From contig CAYMRZ010000002.1 of NCBI GenBank assembly GCA_964393045.1, forward strand, positions 1 to 40,108: a DNA stretch of 40,108 nucleotides, in the 5' to 3' direction. Shown piece by piece: positions 34,189 through 38,356 of this stretch; position 1 is the first letter of the stretch; the number at the start of each line of letters is the position of its first letter. The DNA comes from an uncultured Bdellovibrionales bacterium. Lineage in GTDB: Bacteria > Patescibacteriota > Minisyncoccia > Moranbacterales > DUUL01. The position numbers and the translations under genes were made by a program. Below the pieces are notes generated by a model. The model saw nothing but the letters and a program-made list of their open reading frames with translations. It ran no database searches and was not told the origin of the DNA.

Positions 34189-34262
34189 AAATAAATATCT
34201 CCCTGGAAATGACTCATTTCCAGGGTTGAAAGCGAGGGAGATTTTTAGTTCACTTGCCTCAC
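34189..34262 (+). repeat. Element 'Y' copy B
   Basis: ATCTCCCTGGAAATGACTCATTTCCAGGGTTGAAAGCGAGGGAGATTTTTAG. Here the inner stem is perfect (CCCTGGAAAT/ATTTCCAGGG). As with copy A, a separate terminator hairpin precedes it (GGCACCC/GGGTGTC). Confidence 0.55.
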
Positions 34263-34364
34263 TTTGTTCTAATTTATTTCAGATTAATTGAAGCTAGGGC
34301 ATTTACTTTTTATCAATTCAAAGTTATTATATAGTAAAATTGGTAATTCTTTAAAATAAATAAT

Positions 34365-34901
34365 ATGACAAATAAAATTCAAAAATGGGAGGAGGTTTCA
34401 AGAGAAGAGGCTTTCAGTAAATATGGGAAAAAAATAGAAAAAGTTGACTTTAAATTACCGGATGGAGAGGCGAGTGATTTCTATATTAAAAAAGAGGGAC
34501 CTGCTGTCGGAATCCTAGCTCTCACCAAAGACCAGCAAGTGATATTGGTCAAACAATTTCGTCCAGGCCCCAAAGAGATTTTGGATGAGCTTCCCGGTGG
34601 TTATGTGGATGAAAACGAGACACCCAAAGAGGCTACAGAAAGAGAACTTTTAGAGGAGACTGGATACAAAGGAAAACCAGAGTTTGTGACTATTGCTTAT
34701 GACTGTGCTTATTCAACCATGAACCGACATTGTGTTGTAGTCAAAGATTGCGAAAAAGTTGCTGAGCAAAAATTAGACAAAACTGAATTTGCCGAGGTGG
34801 TTTTGATGAGTCTTGAAGAATTCAGGGAGTTACTCAAGAGTGGTAAAAATACTGATGTAGAGGTGGGATATATCGGATTGGATTATTTGGGATTATTATA
34901 A
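34365..34901 (+). CDS. NUDIX hydrolase (ADP-ribose pyrophosphatase-like)
   Basis: Complete Nudix box GGYVDENETPKEATERELLEETG (GX5EX7REUXEEXGU). Confidence 0.85.
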   Translation: MTNKIQKWEEVSREEAFSKYGKKIEKVDFKLPDGEASDFYIKKEGPAVGILALTKDQQVILVKQFRPGPKEILDELPGGYVDENETPKEATERELLEETGYKGKPEFVTIAYDCAYSTMNRHCVVVKDCEKVAEQKLDKTEFAEVVLMSLEEFRELLKSGKNTDVEVGYIGLDYLGLL

Positions 34902-35005
34902 TTCTTCCCATGAAGCACCTTCTTAGCGGAGAGTAAATAGGCCTTAAACCTTTTTTCTTATATAAATCGATATAATCTAATATAGGTAATATAGAACAAA
35001 GATTG

Positions 35006-35051
35006 TTGACTTTTCTTATATAATCTAATATAATCTTATATAGGTAATATA
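35006..35051 (+). promoter_or_regulatory. Sigma70-type promoter of the fic operon with an overlapping direct-repeat operator
   Basis: TTGACT (35006-35011), 17-nt spacer, TATAAT (35029-35034). The 23-nt repeat TATAATCT(A/T)ATATAGGTAATATA lies at 34971-34993 and 35029-35051. Confidence 0.5.
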
Positions 35052-35063: not shown

Positions 35064-36125
35064 ATGTTAAAAAACAACCAATTTGAAGCTAGAATTAGCA
35101 GTCTTTCACCTGAGATATGGTCAAAGATAACCAAAATAGATGAAATCAAGGGTCGTTGGATTGGGGGAGTCAATTTGAGTCCTCAAATTTTAGGTCGTCT
35201 TAAACAATCAGTTTTAGTTACTTCGGCTGGTGCTTCTACTCGTATTGAAGGGGCGAAGCTGACTGATGAAGATGTGGAAAAATTGATTCGGGGTGTGAAA
35301 ATCGGGAAATGGAAAAGCCGAGATGAGCAAGAGGTGCGGGGATATTACGAGCTGCTCAGGAATGTCTTTGAATCCTGGAAAAATTTGACTTTTAGTGAAA
35401 GCTCTATCAAACATTTTCACAACGAAATGCTCAAATATGTTTCCAAAGATGAGAAGCATAAAGGTGAATACAAGATGATGCCTAACAATGTCGTAATGAA
35501 GGATAAAAAGGGAAATGAAGTTGGAGTAGTTTTTGAAACCATTCCGCCTTATCTTACCCCGAAGAAGATGGAAGCGTTGGTTGATTGGACGAAATCAGCA
35601 TTGGAAGAGGAAAAGTTCCACCCGCTTTTGGTTGTAAGTAATTTTATTGTGGAGTTTCTAAATATCCATCCGTTTCAGGATGGAAACGGGAGACTTTCCA
35701 GAATTCTAACCAACCTCTTGTTGCTAAAAGAGGGGTATTTGTATATGCCCTATATCTCTCACGAAAAATTGATTGAGGACAATAAGAATGACTACTACCT
35801 TGCTCTTCGCAGGAGCCAAAAAACATTTGGGGAAAAAGATGAAAATATTTCAGATTGGCTGGATTATTTTTTAGATATTTTCCTCAAGCAATCAGAAATG
35901 GCAGTAGAGTTGCTAGAGAGCGAGCAAGTGGAAAAACTGCTTTCACCCAAACAACTGAGTGTTTGGGAGTATTTCCAAACTGTTTCCGAAGCAACTCCAG
36001 GTGAAATAACCGAAAAAACCAAAGTTGCCAGACCGACAGTAAACCAAGCATTGAAGAAGTTACTAAATCTGAAAAGAATAGAAAAAATTGGTTCAGGCAG
36101 GGGAACTAGGTATAGAAAGCTGTGA
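35064..36125 (+). CDS. fic: Fic family protein (AMPylase-type) with an N-terminal inhibitory-helix motif and C-terminal wHTH
   Basis: Canonical HPFQDGNGRLSR motif. STRIEG fits the (S/T)xxxE(G/N) auto-inhibition motif. The C-terminus ATPGEITEKTKVARPTVNQALKKL is HTH-like. Confidence 0.9.
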   Translation: MLKNNQFEARISSLSPEIWSKITKIDEIKGRWIGGVNLSPQILGRLKQSVLVTSAGASTRIEGAKLTDEDVEKLIRGVKIGKWKSRDEQEVRGYYELLRNVFESWKNLTFSESSIKHFHNEMLKYVSKDEKHKGEYKMMPNNVVMKDKKGNEVGVVFETIPPYLTPKKMEALVDWTKSALEEEKFHPLLVVSNFIVEFLNIHPFQDGNGRLSRILTNLLLLKEGYLYMPYISHEKLIEDNKNDYYLALRRSQKTFGEKDENISDWLDYFLDIFLKQSEMAVELLESEQVEKLLSPKQLSVWEYFQTVSEATPGEITEKTKVARPTVNQALKKLLNLKRIEKIGSGRGTRYRKL

Positions 36126-38269
36126 CAATGTTAACTCCATCTGAAAAAATTCAGATATTCAGAAGCCTATTCAAGGGCAGGGAAGATGTTTTTGCTGTTC
36201 GCTGGGAAAAAAGAGACGGGTCGGCTAGCGGATATACCCCGGTCTGTCTTAATGAATGGAAACAGGGATTATGCAATAAGCTTAAGCGAAAGAAGTGTAA
36301 GGAATGTGACAATAAGGCCTATGCTCAGTTTTCCAACTTCTATATTGAACAGCACTTAAGAGGCAATAAATGTTATGGAGCTTACCCCCTTCTGGAGGAT
36401 AACACATCCTACTTTATTGTAGCTGATTTTGACGGTGAAAATTGGCAGGAAGATTCTGTAAAATTTATCAAAAAATGCAAAAAGTATAACCTATCTACCT
36501 ATCTTGAACGTTCACGCAGCGGGAAAGGCGGTCACGTGTGGATGTTTTTTGCGGATAAATATCCAGCTTATAGAAGTAGAAATATTGCCATTAATATTTT
36601 GCGGGAGGCAAAAATAATAGACCAATTTGAAAAAGAAGATGCTTTTGACAGATTATTTCCCAACCAAGATATTCACAGCGGAGAAGGATTTGGAAATCTA
36701 ATAGCGTTGCCTCTGCAGGGAGAGTCTAGAAATATTGGTAATGCAGTTTTTCTAGATTGTGAGAAAAAAGTAAAACCTATTACTGACCAGTGGAAACATT
36801 TGGCAGAAATTAAAAAGATAACGTTGGAAAAATTAGACGAAATTTATGATAAGTTTAATAATAAAAATGAAAAGCAAAAAGCTACATCAGGAAGGAAGCT
36901 AGAGATGGTTTTGGGAGAGCAAATATTTCTGAATAAAAATTTACCAAGGGTTGTTGTAAATTTTCTAAAAGAAAATCTTAATTTTGCAAATTTGGAATTT
37001 ACAATCAAGAAAAGAATGGGAGTGAGCGTATATGGGATGGAAAAATACTTCAAGCTCATTGACAATCAAAACGATAAAATTGCTATTCCAAGAGGGTTTC
37101 TAAAAGAATTGGTGGATTTTTTGAATCAGGAAGATATAAAATTCGAGATTACAGATAAAAGAGAAAAATTAAAACCAACTAAATTCGAAATCAACTATAA
37201 ACTTTACGATTATCAGAAGAAAGCAATTGAGGATATATTGGAGTCGGAGAATGGACTCCTGGTCGCACCGCCTGGCTCAGGTAAGACAGTAATTGGATTG
37301 GATATTGTTGCCAAACTGAAACAGCCAACTCTTATTCTGGTTCATAAAAAACAAATTTTTAACCAGTGGCTGGAGAGAATTGAGGGTTTTCTTAATATTC
37401 CCAAAAGGGAAATCGGGCAGTATGTGTCTAATAAGAAAAAACTTAGTAATAAAATTACAGTAGCAATGGTGCAAACGTTTAATCGTCTAGAAAATTTGGA
37501 GGAATTGAGGGATAAATTTGGGTTGGTTCTTGTTGACGAATGTCATCATATACCAGCCAGGATGTTCAGGAGCGTTATAACCAAGCTTAATCCACGTTAT
37601 CTCTATGGTTTTACTGCAACACCTGAAAGAAAAAACAATGATGAGAAGTTGATTTTTATATATCTTGGCGAGATTTTACACACAATAAAAAAAGGCTTTC
37701 GAGCAGTTGAAAAATATAAGGGCAAAACTAACTTAGAGTTGGCTGTAAAAGAGACTAAATTAAAAATTCCATTTAAAGTCAAAACGGACAATTTCCAGAT
37801 GTTAGCCAAAATAATTGTTTTTGATTCCGCCAGAAATGTGCAAATCGTTAAAGACATAAAGGCTGAAACTGATAGAGTCAAAAAATGCCTGGTTTTAACT
37901 GAAAGAAAAGAACATATTGAGGTTTTGAGTTGCTATCTTAAGAGAGAATATGAGATTATTGAATTGAGCGGAGATTTAACTGAAAAACAAAGGCGAGAAA
38001 AAATAAAGCAAATTGAAGATGGGGACTTTCAAATTATTTTAGCTACAGGACAACTTATTGGCGAAGGCACTGATTTTCAAGGTCTAGACTGTTTATTTTT
38101 AGTTTTTCCATTCGCTTTCCAAGGGAAATTAACACAATATATTGGTAGAATCCAAAGAGGAGTTGAGAGTGGAGGTAAAATTTATGATTATAGAGATAGT
38201 AATGTTGAATATTTGGAAAGATTTTTCAAAAAAAGAAAAAAATATTATGAGAAGAATGGTTATTTATAA
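36122..38269 (+). CDS. Archaeo-eukaryotic primase (AEP/PrimPol)-like domain fused to an SF2 DEAH helicase
   Basis: AEP motifs IVADFDG (DxD), SRSGKGGHVWMFF (sGxGxH) and LFPNQD. Cys cluster CNKLKRKKCKEC. Helicase motifs APPGSGKTV, LVDECHH, FTATPER, IGEGTDF and QYIGRIQRG. GTG 36122 overlaps the fic stop; ATG 36128 is the alternative start. Confidence 0.75.
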   Translation: MTMLTPSEKIQIFRSLFKGREDVFAVRWEKRDGSASGYTPVCLNEWKQGLCNKLKRKKCKECDNKAYAQFSNFYIEQHLRGNKCYGAYPLLEDNTSYFIVADFDGENWQEDSVKFIKKCKKYNLSTYLERSRSGKGGHVWMFFADKYPAYRSRNIAINILREAKIIDQFEKEDAFDRLFPNQDIHSGEGFGNLIALPLQGESRNIGNAVFLDCEKKVKPITDQWKHLAEIKKITLEKLDEIYDKFNNKNEKQKATSGRKLEMVLGEQIFLNKNLPRVVVNFLKENLNFANLEFTIKKRMGVSVYGMEKYFKLIDNQNDKIAIPRGFLKELVDFLNQEDIKFEITDKREKLKPTKFEINYKLYDYQKKAIEDILESENGLLVAPPGSGKTVIGLDIVAKLKQPTLILVHKKQIFNQWLERIEGFLNIPKREIGQYVSNKKKLSNKITVAMVQTFNRLENLEELRDKFGLVLVDECHHIPARMFRSVITKLNPRYLYGFTATPERKNNDEKLIFIYLGEILHTIKKGFRAVEKYKGKTNLELAVKETKLKIPFKVKTDNFQMLAKIIVFDSARNVQIVKDIKAETDRVKKCLVLTERKEHIEVLSCYLKREYEIIELSGDLTEKQRREKIKQIEDGDFQIILATGQLIGEGTDFQGLDCLFLVFPFAFQGKLTQYIGRIQRGVESGGKIYDYRDSNVEYLERFFKKRKKYYEKNGYL

Positions 38270-38328
38270 TATGCAATCAGAGGATTTCCAGGGAGTAATT
38301 CGGACTTAAAACAAGACAAAATTACCGT

Positions 38329-38356
38329 TTCCTCCCACGAATCACCTCCTTTCTAG
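38329..38356 (+). repeat. Second copy of the 28-nt island-end / 16S-tail motif
   Basis: TTCCTCCCACGAATCACCTCCTTTCTAG, identical to 24719-24746. Confidence 0.8.

Follow-up and report, generated by a model that had tools for sequence, protein, structure and literature searches.

A candidate facultative operon of fic and an IEE-family AEP-helicase gene among 16S rRNA tail repeats of a Moranbacterales genome

When a gene for a toxin-like Fic protein ends directly before a gene for a primase-polymerase/helicase fusion (AEP-helicase), do the two genes form one unit, and does the unit include the Nudix hydrolase gene that precedes them? The locus that raises this question is positions 34189-38356 of contig CAYMRZ010000002.1, from an uncultured bacterium of the Moranbacterales (Patescibacteriota; assembly GCA_964393045.1, 1.04 Mb in 105 contigs). 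This entire contig of 40,108 bp was analyzed and is called the window below; its best protein matches were from Moranbacteria and other Patescibacteria. An original prediction, made from the letters alone, had described a Nudix-Fic-AEP-helicase islet bounded by a repeat named Y and by a 28-nt motif joined to a repeat named X, and had likened it to a TOTE conflict system. The explanation that we favor, at a probability of about 0.6, is that fic and the AEP-helicase gene are transcribed together as a facultative pair, a toxin and an enzyme directed against mobile DNA, on a cassette that has no integrase and excludes the Nudix gene. On the best reading of the sequence comparisons, the fic promoter and the two genes (35006-38276) would be a horizontally transferred, integrase-less operon, and the block a composite at the far end of insertions that have piled up at the 16S rRNA 3' tip. 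The features of the block were as follows.

34365..34901, + strand: Nudix hydrolase, 178 aa (PF00293, 2e-17, 63.9 bits; complete Nudix box)
34902..34929, + strand: degenerate 28-nt 16S-tail motif, 20/28 matches, between the Nudix stop and the fic promoter
34953..35063, + strand: fic control region, with two 44-nt direct repeats and a sigma-70-like promoter
35064..36125, + strand: Fic protein, class II AMPylase-type, 353 aa (PF02661, 2.6e-14; PADLOC SoFic model, 6e-46)
36128..38269, + strand: IEE-family AEP-helicase, 713 aa, or 715 aa from GTG 36122 (PF22548, ResIII and Helicase_C)
38329..38545, + strand: 28-nt motif (38329-38356) and X-C (16S tail and trailer copy), the right junction of the cassette

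The two genes and their control region

Pfam and motif analysis confirmed the three open reading frames (ORFs) and their main domains as predicted. The AEP-helicase matched PF22548 (AEP-TOTE) at 5.4e-87 and 291.6 bits against a cut-off of 27, so the family name given in the original prediction was right. Its N-terminal AEP/PrimPol part ('Z1568-like') contained a cluster of four cysteines and DFD, GGH, and FDR motifs, and its C-terminal part was an XPB-like superfamily 2 (SF2) motor with GSGKT and DECHH. By BLASTP, the protein showed 34% identity over 713 aa (E 1e-146) with a 786-aa protein of Escherichia coli O157:H7 EDL933 (locus L125; loci, genomes, and contigs are cited by our handles L, G, and C), and one alignment covered residues 1-712 of the window protein and 44-775 of the EDL933 protein. 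The Cys cluster, catalytic triad, motif B histidine, Walker A, DExH box, and motif VI were conserved between the two. The positions D142/D144, H178, and D216 of the EDL933 protein agree with the published numbering of IEE, and VADFDG, GGHVW, and FDRLFPNQ of the window protein align with them and were invariant in 22 homologues. From its sequence, therefore, the AEP-helicase is a full-length IEE homologue whose predicted polymerase and ATPase residues are intact. The solved relatives were archaeal XPB for the motor and a CRISPR-associated PrimPol for the AEP domain; an AlphaFold2 model (pLDDT 74.9, poor for residues 1-90) confirmed the XPB-like motor and nothing further. Because E. coli IEE itself scored 329 bits on PF22548, this Pfam model is not specific to TOTE loci.

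The Fic protein had the catalytic motif HPFQDGNGRLSR at residue 202, which fits HxFx(D/E)GNGRxxR, and the inhibitory motif STRIEG at residues 58-63, which fits (S/T)xxxE(G/N); both were invariant in 15 of 15 AEP-helicase-linked Fic proteins. The part of PMC3667792 that defines class II Fic proteins places the inhibitory motif in the same chain, N-terminal to the core. Since STRIEG lies N-terminal to the Fic core, the window protein belongs to class II. The inhibitory helix of the original prediction thus held; its helix-turn-helix (HTH) was represented only by sub-threshold Pfam matches at residues 308-351. The protein aligns with PDB 8uqu and with the SoFic model of PADLOC through this C-terminus, and the orthologue in G008 passes DIP2311-like_C (27.7 bits vs a cut-off of 27). 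These comparisons suggest that a C-terminal winged HTH (wHTH) is probable.

Two 44-nt direct repeats (34953-34996 and 35011-35054) precede fic. Within them lies TTGACT-17-TATAAT (35006-35034), the region's best sigma-70-like promoter. The sequence shared with other genomes began at the -35 box of this promoter (35006) and extended to the AEP-helicase stop (38276), with 75-76% nucleotide identity to L017 and L022; the final 59 nt ahead of fic were 95% identical to the same loci. At the junction of the two genes, the start that matches orthologues is ATG 36128, 2 nt past the fic stop (TGA 36123-36125). The predicted overlap of the two genes is therefore not borne out, as only the alternative start GTG 36122 overlaps the fic stop. 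The pair is thus characterized by its own strong promoter inside conserved repeats, a 2-nt junction, and intact Fic catalytic and inhibitory motifs. No small ORF was present between the two genes in the window. An ORF of about 85 aa was observed at this position in L011 (9731-9988), L048 (1086-1334), and L052 (2934-3191).

Association of Fic with the AEP-helicase in other genomes

The neighborhood of the AEP-helicase was surveyed in 100 non-redundant homologue loci. In 61 of them a co-directional gene ended no more than 200 nt, often 0-40 nt, before the AEP-helicase start. Pfam families were tallied for 91 upstream proteins from these 61 loci, and among the best 25 of 69 families Fic was the top family with 22 of the 91 proteins, followed by N6_Mtase/Eco57I (7/91), AbiEii (6/91), PIF1 (4/91), RhuM and Bles03/DUF6155 (3/91 each), and HEPN_AbiV and PD-(D/E)xK (2/91 each). 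Other upstream partners were toxin or defense modules too (AbiEii, HigBA, HEPN_AbiV, RhuM, and Eco57I-type enzymes), and the homologous loci had no constant downstream partner. With a locally built hidden Markov model, a Fic gene was detected within 3.4 kb in 34 of the 100 loci, above any other family, against a background of roughly 4 Fic genes per 1-Mb genome. Half of these (17) carried the Fic subfamily of the window, and in about 10 the gap was -3 to +30 nt. A tight junction of -3 to +4 nt recurred across AEP-helicases that were only 45-80% identical. In identity matrices, shallow clusters inherited both genes together, and Fic subtypes were swapped in L024, L118, and L089. Because Fic subtypes have been exchanged between AEP-helicase clades, the pairing arose repeatedly. 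Compared across these sequences, the pattern reads as a repeated, selected juxtaposition of two separable modules and not as an obligate pair.

The AEP-helicase was rare and patchily distributed. One of 40 relatives gave a match to PF22548, which was weak and short, and across the phylum 7 of 401 species-level genomes had the domain. AEP-helicase homologues were nevertheless 60-80% identical across several classes of the candidate phyla radiation (CPR), and such rarity and patchiness combined with high identity is a signature of horizontal transfer. The Fic subfamily of the window (at least 43% identity) occurred in 18 of the 401 phylum genomes, the window genome included; one of the 17 others also had PF22548, on another contig, and the six other AEP-TOTE genomes had no such Fic adjoining. 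Each gene was thus more often seen without the other. The test proposed with the original prediction, whether the two are conserved as neighbors, therefore came out divided: Fic is the top neighbor and is tightly coupled where both are present, and the two are facultative partners that mostly occur apart. Beyond the phylum, full-length homologues (33-35% identity) were carried on 98 plasmid records, where they look like cargo, and one on an Acinetobacter plasmid lies directly behind HigB/HigA. A phage origin was considered and rejected, as 50,697 phage records contained no full-length homologue. In the plasmid-labelled E. coli records L121 and L125, IEE follows AlpA, YfjI, and inovirus-type Gp2 genes, and in EC93 pCP127 it adjoins a DprA-containing gene pair and the cdiBA locus, an island context rich in conflict genes.

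What the pair might do can be outlined from its best-known relatives. IEE polymerizes DNA in a Mn-dependent and error-prone manner and also carries out microhomology-mediated end joining; it boosts the transposase-dependent excision of copy-out-paste-in insertion sequences (IS), and the E. coli enzyme joins 3' overhangs that share at least 4 bp of homology (PMC9943667; bioRxiv 10.1101/2023.06.07.543989). SoFic has been described as an abortive-infection toxin (PMC12249575), and other bacterial Fic toxins AMPylate GyrB/ParE (PMC7479194). By analogy, the window Fic may be an auto-inhibited AMPylating toxin of SoFic type whose wHTH would repress its own promoter through the 44-nt repeats. If repression or inhibition were relieved, for example by an invading element, both proteins would rise together. 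The IEE-like enzyme could then work on replicating or excised mobile DNA, for which Mn-dependent synthesis, template switching, and microhomology-mediated end joining by E. coli IEE provide the model (PMC9943667; bioRxiv 10.1101/2023.06.07.543989), and Fic would meanwhile arrest the cell or a DNA-handling target. The partnership is facultative because both genes also work in other contexts.

Several points weigh against a functional link of this kind. In a Mantel-type test on 15 Fic/AEP-helicase pairs, the distances correlated weakly and without significance (rho 0.14, permutation p 0.14). The genes that directly precede AEP-helicase homologues are of many unrelated kinds, so the tight spacing may be a property of the AEP-helicase gene and not of a partnership with Fic. 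Among species-representative genomes, Fic and the AEP-helicase were almost never found together, and G008 carries a Nudix-Fic pair (Fic 79% identical) with the same promoter region and no helicase gene, its homology to the window running precisely to the fic stop. In the window's assembly no rve-type transposase was detected, although metagenome-assembled genomes often lose IS copies, and the IS-excision role of E. coli IEE may therefore not apply here. The left end of the cassette in the window is a decayed 20/28 motif only. Moreover, the link between Fic and the IEE-like enzyme, the wHTH, and the operator role of the repeats are all predictions from sequence comparison. As an anecdote that is not evidence, G008, which lacks an IEE-like enzyme, has three identical copies of an rve-type transposase.

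The strongest alternative, which is possible but which we hold with much reserve, is that each gene is a module of its own, fic for an abortive-infection toxin of SoFic type and the other for an enzyme of IEE type, and that both merely reside in a defense hot spot. Their adjacency would then reflect island dynamics and shared use of a promoter, and neither would depend on the other in function. This would account for the frequent occurrence of each gene without the other, for the many other neighbors upstream and downstream of AEP-helicase genes, and for the weak co-phylogeny signal, and it fits the description of SoFic as a stand-alone gene with at most a small antitoxin (PMC12249575). It explains less well why Fic adjoins about one third of the loci at a background of so few Fic genes per genome, and why the same tight junction recurs at such divergent AEP-helicases. 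The involvement of different Fic subtypes also argues for repeated selection of the arrangement. The conflict-type pairing of the original prediction stands, and its three-gene system does not.

The cassette and the 16S rRNA tail repeats

The surroundings of the pair include copies of the end of the 16S rRNA gene, for which the following additional features are needed.

1..47, + strand: 3' end of the 16S rRNA gene; the contig begins inside the gene
24719..24978, + strand: 28-nt motif and X-B (16S tail and trailer copy), perfect direct-repeat partner of the 28-nt/X-C junction
34155..34253, + strand: terminator-like hairpin (34155-34177), then Y-B (34176-34253), from repeat comparison and alignment with other genomes

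The 16S end of the window showed 100% identity over 51 nt to the Rfam-called 16S ends of L017, L022, and L024; apart from its ends, the host's own 16S gene is unassembled. The repeated att-like core is the terminal 16 nt of 16S rRNA (ATCACCTCCTTTCTAG): the 28-nt motif finishes in these 16 nt, and every X copy opens with them and continues into a trailer that folds into hairpins, in which base changes from one copy to the next are compensatory. The copies of the 28-nt motif at 38329-38356 and 24719-24746 were 100% identical, and a further 56 nt (38358-38413 and 24808-24863) were identical; X-C lacks 61 nt of X-B. The right boundary of the original prediction was therefore a real att-like repeat, and the same 16S-tail junction lies directly 3' of the AEP-helicase in the window, L017, and L041. 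As had also been noted, there is no integrase ORF in 34189-38356 and no X copy to the left of Y-B in the block.

On the left, the flank could be either the 20/28 motif at 34902 or X-B, 13.6 kb upstream. A match of 20/28 is expected 0.04 times per shuffled window, and from this comparison 34902-34929 may be the relic left junction of the Fic/IEE-like cassette. In L015, L017, L022, and L024, the AEP-helicase gene follows the 16S gene at a distance of 0.3-6.6 kb. The order in L017 is FtsX, 16S, X, fic, AEP-helicase, and a tail copy with X; its tail/trailer direct repeats flanking the pair agree at 94-97% identity across some 230 nt, in a locus that has no integrase. In L015 a tail copy splits two modules, and AbiEi/AbiEii replace Fic before the AEP-helicase. 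The link to 16S is limited to the closest clade (73-80% protein identity) and to 6 of the 100 loci. In a same-genus genome, the contig ends at the Germane gene, before the position of a possible empty site. Most likely the cassette moves when integrases encoded by neighboring islands act on the 16S-tail repeats, or when its trailer copies recombine by homology. The locus is a clean example of an integrase-less cassette flanked by 16S rRNA tail copies, and it supports the 3' tip of 16S as a landing site of mobile DNA in these organisms.

An improbable alternative is that the AEP-helicase is the cassette's own replication or mobility enzyme, which would insert or excise it at the 16S tail by priming, template switching, or microhomology joining, and that Fic and the other upstream genes are cargo or addiction modules. 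The 16S-linked cassettes do lack a recombinase and yet are flanked by direct repeats, the AEP-helicase is always the final gene before the right junction, the upstream partners are typical addiction modules, and the end joining of E. coli IEE at short homologies would be a suitable activity. However, tail copies do not occur outside the small closest clade, phage records have no full-length homologue and the plasmid copies are cargo-like, E. coli IEE requires a transposase, and integrases that target the same site in the same array offer a simpler route. A broader conjecture, which we consider unlikely, is that IEE-type PrimPol-translocases are the invariable part of a widespread modular system, their expression being gated by toxin modules that regulate themselves and can replace one another (Fic-wHTH, AbiEi/AbiEii, HigBA, or HEPN), and that in the Moranbacteria-like clade they would also perform microhomology-guided template switching at the 16S-tail/trailer repeats, inserting or deleting integrase-less cassettes or pruning the island stack behind the only 16S gene. 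If true, this would be a polymerase-based, recombinase-independent route of site-specific mobility.

Returning to the operon that we favor, its neighbor on the left appears to have another history. The Nudix box GX5EX7REUXEEXGU was read in translation as G-YVDEN-E-TPKEATE-RE-L-L-EE-T-G-Y, and the protein resembles ADP-ribose/NudE-type enzymes. Orthologues (53-88% identity) were present in about 14 of the 40 relatives, all without PF22548, and homology of their loci to the window spans from 34284 or 34336 to exactly the Nudix stop at 34901; conversely, L017, L022, and others have Fic and the AEP-helicase without this Nudix. Because the orthologues sit in relatives without the AEP-helicase and the homology ends at the Nudix stop, the Nudix is a lineage gene outside the mobile unit, probably a lineage-typical housekeeping ADP-sugar-type pyrophosphatase. 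The expected mobility of the block therefore applies to the accessory AEP-helicase and not to the Nudix, which had been predicted as a member of the unit. In this family of bacteria the Nudix gene tends to lie just downstream of the 16S trailer. Trailer-unit sequences were near the gene in 3 of 7 relatives examined: in G008 and G029 the 16S end and X precede the Nudix by a few kb, and in G016 the gene lies about 0.8 kb past a 3' remnant of X, where no 16S gene was detected in the locus. In L034 (G021:C9), the Nudix orthologue is directly followed by a LOOT RNA (8906-9029; RF03000, 85 bits), and no match to this RNA was found in the window.

The left boundary of the predicted islet, Y-B, is a real copy (81% identity to Y-A at 492-569); Y is not an element private to this genome, as its core was found in at least 10 genomes of the order. 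The core is a 9-7-9 inverted repeat, CCCTGGAAA TGACTCA TTTCCAGGG, at 34196-34225 and 512-541. In five of the genomes with a Y core, a 16S end or tail copy precedes Y by 180-830 nt, and alignment of the Y loci gave the unit order 16S tail, X, terminator hairpin, Y. The hairpin and Y-B (34155-34253) are thus the 3' part of a fourth trailer unit. In G474 this unit is followed by an integrase, and so is Y-A of the window. From its sequence, the Y core could be a recombinase core site. One arm of the core resembles the 16S tail (TTTCTAGGG), and the core, found order-wide, is always near a 16S end or tail copy (L127-L135). That Y is a diverged copy of the 28-nt motif was rejected, as its 18/28 match is at chance level (1.26 expected per window). 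No Rfam family reached threshold in the window, and an E-value scan of 33800-38950 gave just chance miRNA-type matches on a palindrome at 38699-38744; X and Y are therefore outside all curated families.

The whole interval from the 16S end to X-C looks accessory. Three integrases lie within 826-23828, a 335-aa gene (32606-33613) is missing from 40 of 40 relatives, and the tyrosyl-tRNA synthetase (TyrRS) gene at 31255-32463 is an extra copy, a native-type TyrRS being present on contig C7. The latter is 44% identical to the window TyrRS, and the same-genus relative has that type only. The segment between X-B and Y-B (25376-33613) has an elevated GC content of 0.37-0.43, and genes of this block encode an amidohydrolase, an Fe-alcohol dehydrogenase-like protein, an AMP-binding protein, an aldehyde dehydrogenase, a tryptophanyl-tRNA synthetase-like protein, and the second TyrRS. 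An N-terminal integrase remnant (25188-25246, 81% identical to 883-941) lies just past X-B. The segment 25376-33613 looks like a decayed island with spare aminoacyl-tRNA synthetases among its cargo.

Further repeats were observed around the X copies. A GC-rich hairpin, CCGCCCGCCTGCAACGCTTTGCGTAGCAATGCGGG, is inserted in X-B (24831-24866) and X-C (38381-38416) and not in X-A, and its 82-91% matches on at least 10 other contigs (C61, C39, C31, C62, C53, C36, C21, C24, C101, and C42) mark it as a dispersed small hairpin element. The palindrome at 38699-38744, downstream of X-C, has perfect 23-nt arms and also occurs on C42 (several times), C9, and C47, which suggests a repeat similar to repetitive extragenic palindromes or miniature inverted-repeat transposable elements. 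For the 58-aa MazE/AbrB-like gene that follows X-C (38949-39125), the genome contains eight paralogues at 35-60% identity, one of which directly follows another Fic gene on C4 (24920-26174), the others being on seven more contigs. In L036 (G008:C2, about 12026-12881) and L040 (G029:C15, about 5386-6131), a gap of about 750-850 nt separates the end of the Rfam 16S match from a perfect copy of the 16S 3' terminus, and the gap in G008 holds a 211-aa ORF; this suggests either an insertion near the 16S 3' end or a further tail duplication.

Comparison with known systems

TOTE stands for TPR, OB, TBP, and Effector (Aravind, Iyer and Burroughs 2022, as given in the part of bioRxiv 10.1101/2025.09.15.676423 that defines the term). 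For TOTE systems with primases, our literature search gave nothing beyond the definition in this YprA preprint. The likeness of the window locus is confined to the Pfam family name of the AEP domain. The PF00352 profile for TBP had no match in the whole 1.04-Mb genome, whereas archaeal controls scored. By Pfam, no TPR, OB, or CSD domain was found in the three genes of the block or in the flanking ORFs (32606-33613, 38949-39125, and 39113-40033), so no TPR-CSD protein adjoins the locus. Neither TPR-CSD nor TBP was among the families listed for 119 neighbors of the homologous loci (upstream, the best 25 of 69). The block as a TOTE system was thus rejected. A single conflict system of TOTE kind, made up of all three genes (Nudix, Fic, and AEP-helicase) on a Y-B/X-C islet, is hardly credible: all three are on the same strand between a Y copy and a tail/X copy, the Pfam name contains 'TOTE', and Nudix and Fic are adjacent in G008 too, but the Nudix and the pair each occur without the other, a relic tail motif and a separate promoter divide the Nudix from fic, and the TPR, OB, and TBP partners are absent. 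For annotation, 'TOTE' in a Pfam or RefSeq name is a trap, as it does not imply a TOTE system.

The integrase-less segment itself resembles cis-mobilizable elements (CIMEs), which arise in the tandem accretion of integrative elements at tRNA/tmRNA att sites, as in the ICESt1/ICESt3 literature. Like CIMEs, the window segment lacks an integrase, is bounded by att-type direct repeats, and shares one site with a tandem series of islands that carry integrases, in which the unit farthest from the target gene is the oldest and most decayed. It differs in that the target is the 3' tip of 16S rRNA with its trailer and not a tRNA gene, and in that excision and mobilization of the window segment are predictions.

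The Fic protein was compared with SoFic (Shewanella, PDB 3EQX), a single-gene anti-phage system of PADLOC and DefenseFinder. The two share the Fic motif, the N-terminal inhibitory helix, a length of about 350-370 aa, and probably a C-terminal DNA-binding-like domain, and the PADLOC model matches the window Fic over nearly its full length. On NCBIfam NF046030, however, the window Fic scored 58.2 bits against an equivalog cut-off of 550, so it is a family relative and not a SoFic equivalog, and its best solved relative is another Fido protein, 8uqu, and not SoFic. In E. coli, Sofic has a small downstream antitoxin, AS1 (anti-Sofic; PMC12249575), whereas the window Fic is followed by the IEE-like gene without a small antitoxin gene. 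The ORF of about 85 aa between Fic and the AEP-helicase in L011, L048, and L052 is reminiscent of AS1.

From the sequence comparisons, IEE of E. coli O157:H7 is the closest studied relative of the window AEP-helicase, whose IS excision, polymerase, and microhomology-mediated end-joining activities are predicted at most. Both proteins have the same full-length, colinear architecture of an AEP 'Z1568-like' domain and an SF2 helicase-like part, with the same PF22548 match, Cys cluster, catalytic Asp/Asp/His/Asp residues, Walker A, DExH, and motif VI, and both genes are carried on horizontally acquired islands. They are distant, the window protein being about 70 residues shorter at the N-terminus, and their hosts differ: E. 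coli on one side, and on the other a CPR genome of 1 Mb that yielded no rve-type IS. The window gene is second in a Fic-led operon, whereas E. coli IEE follows island genes of AlpA/YfjI/Gp2 type. Neither IEE paper mentions Fic (PMC9943667; bioRxiv 10.1101/2023.06.07.543989), and our literature search found no paper naming both Z1568/IEE and Fic. E. coli IEE is among the few known host-encoded activities that remove mobile DNA, and its deployment and regulation are unclear. Its distant relatives are widespread in ultra-small CPR bacteria, almost always as the last gene of an operon and repeatedly behind a self-inhibited Fic or modules of toxin-antitoxin type, which offers a testable hypothesis for such control. 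The key enzyme of the locus thus belongs to the already studied IEE family, and the locus is a variation on known kinds.

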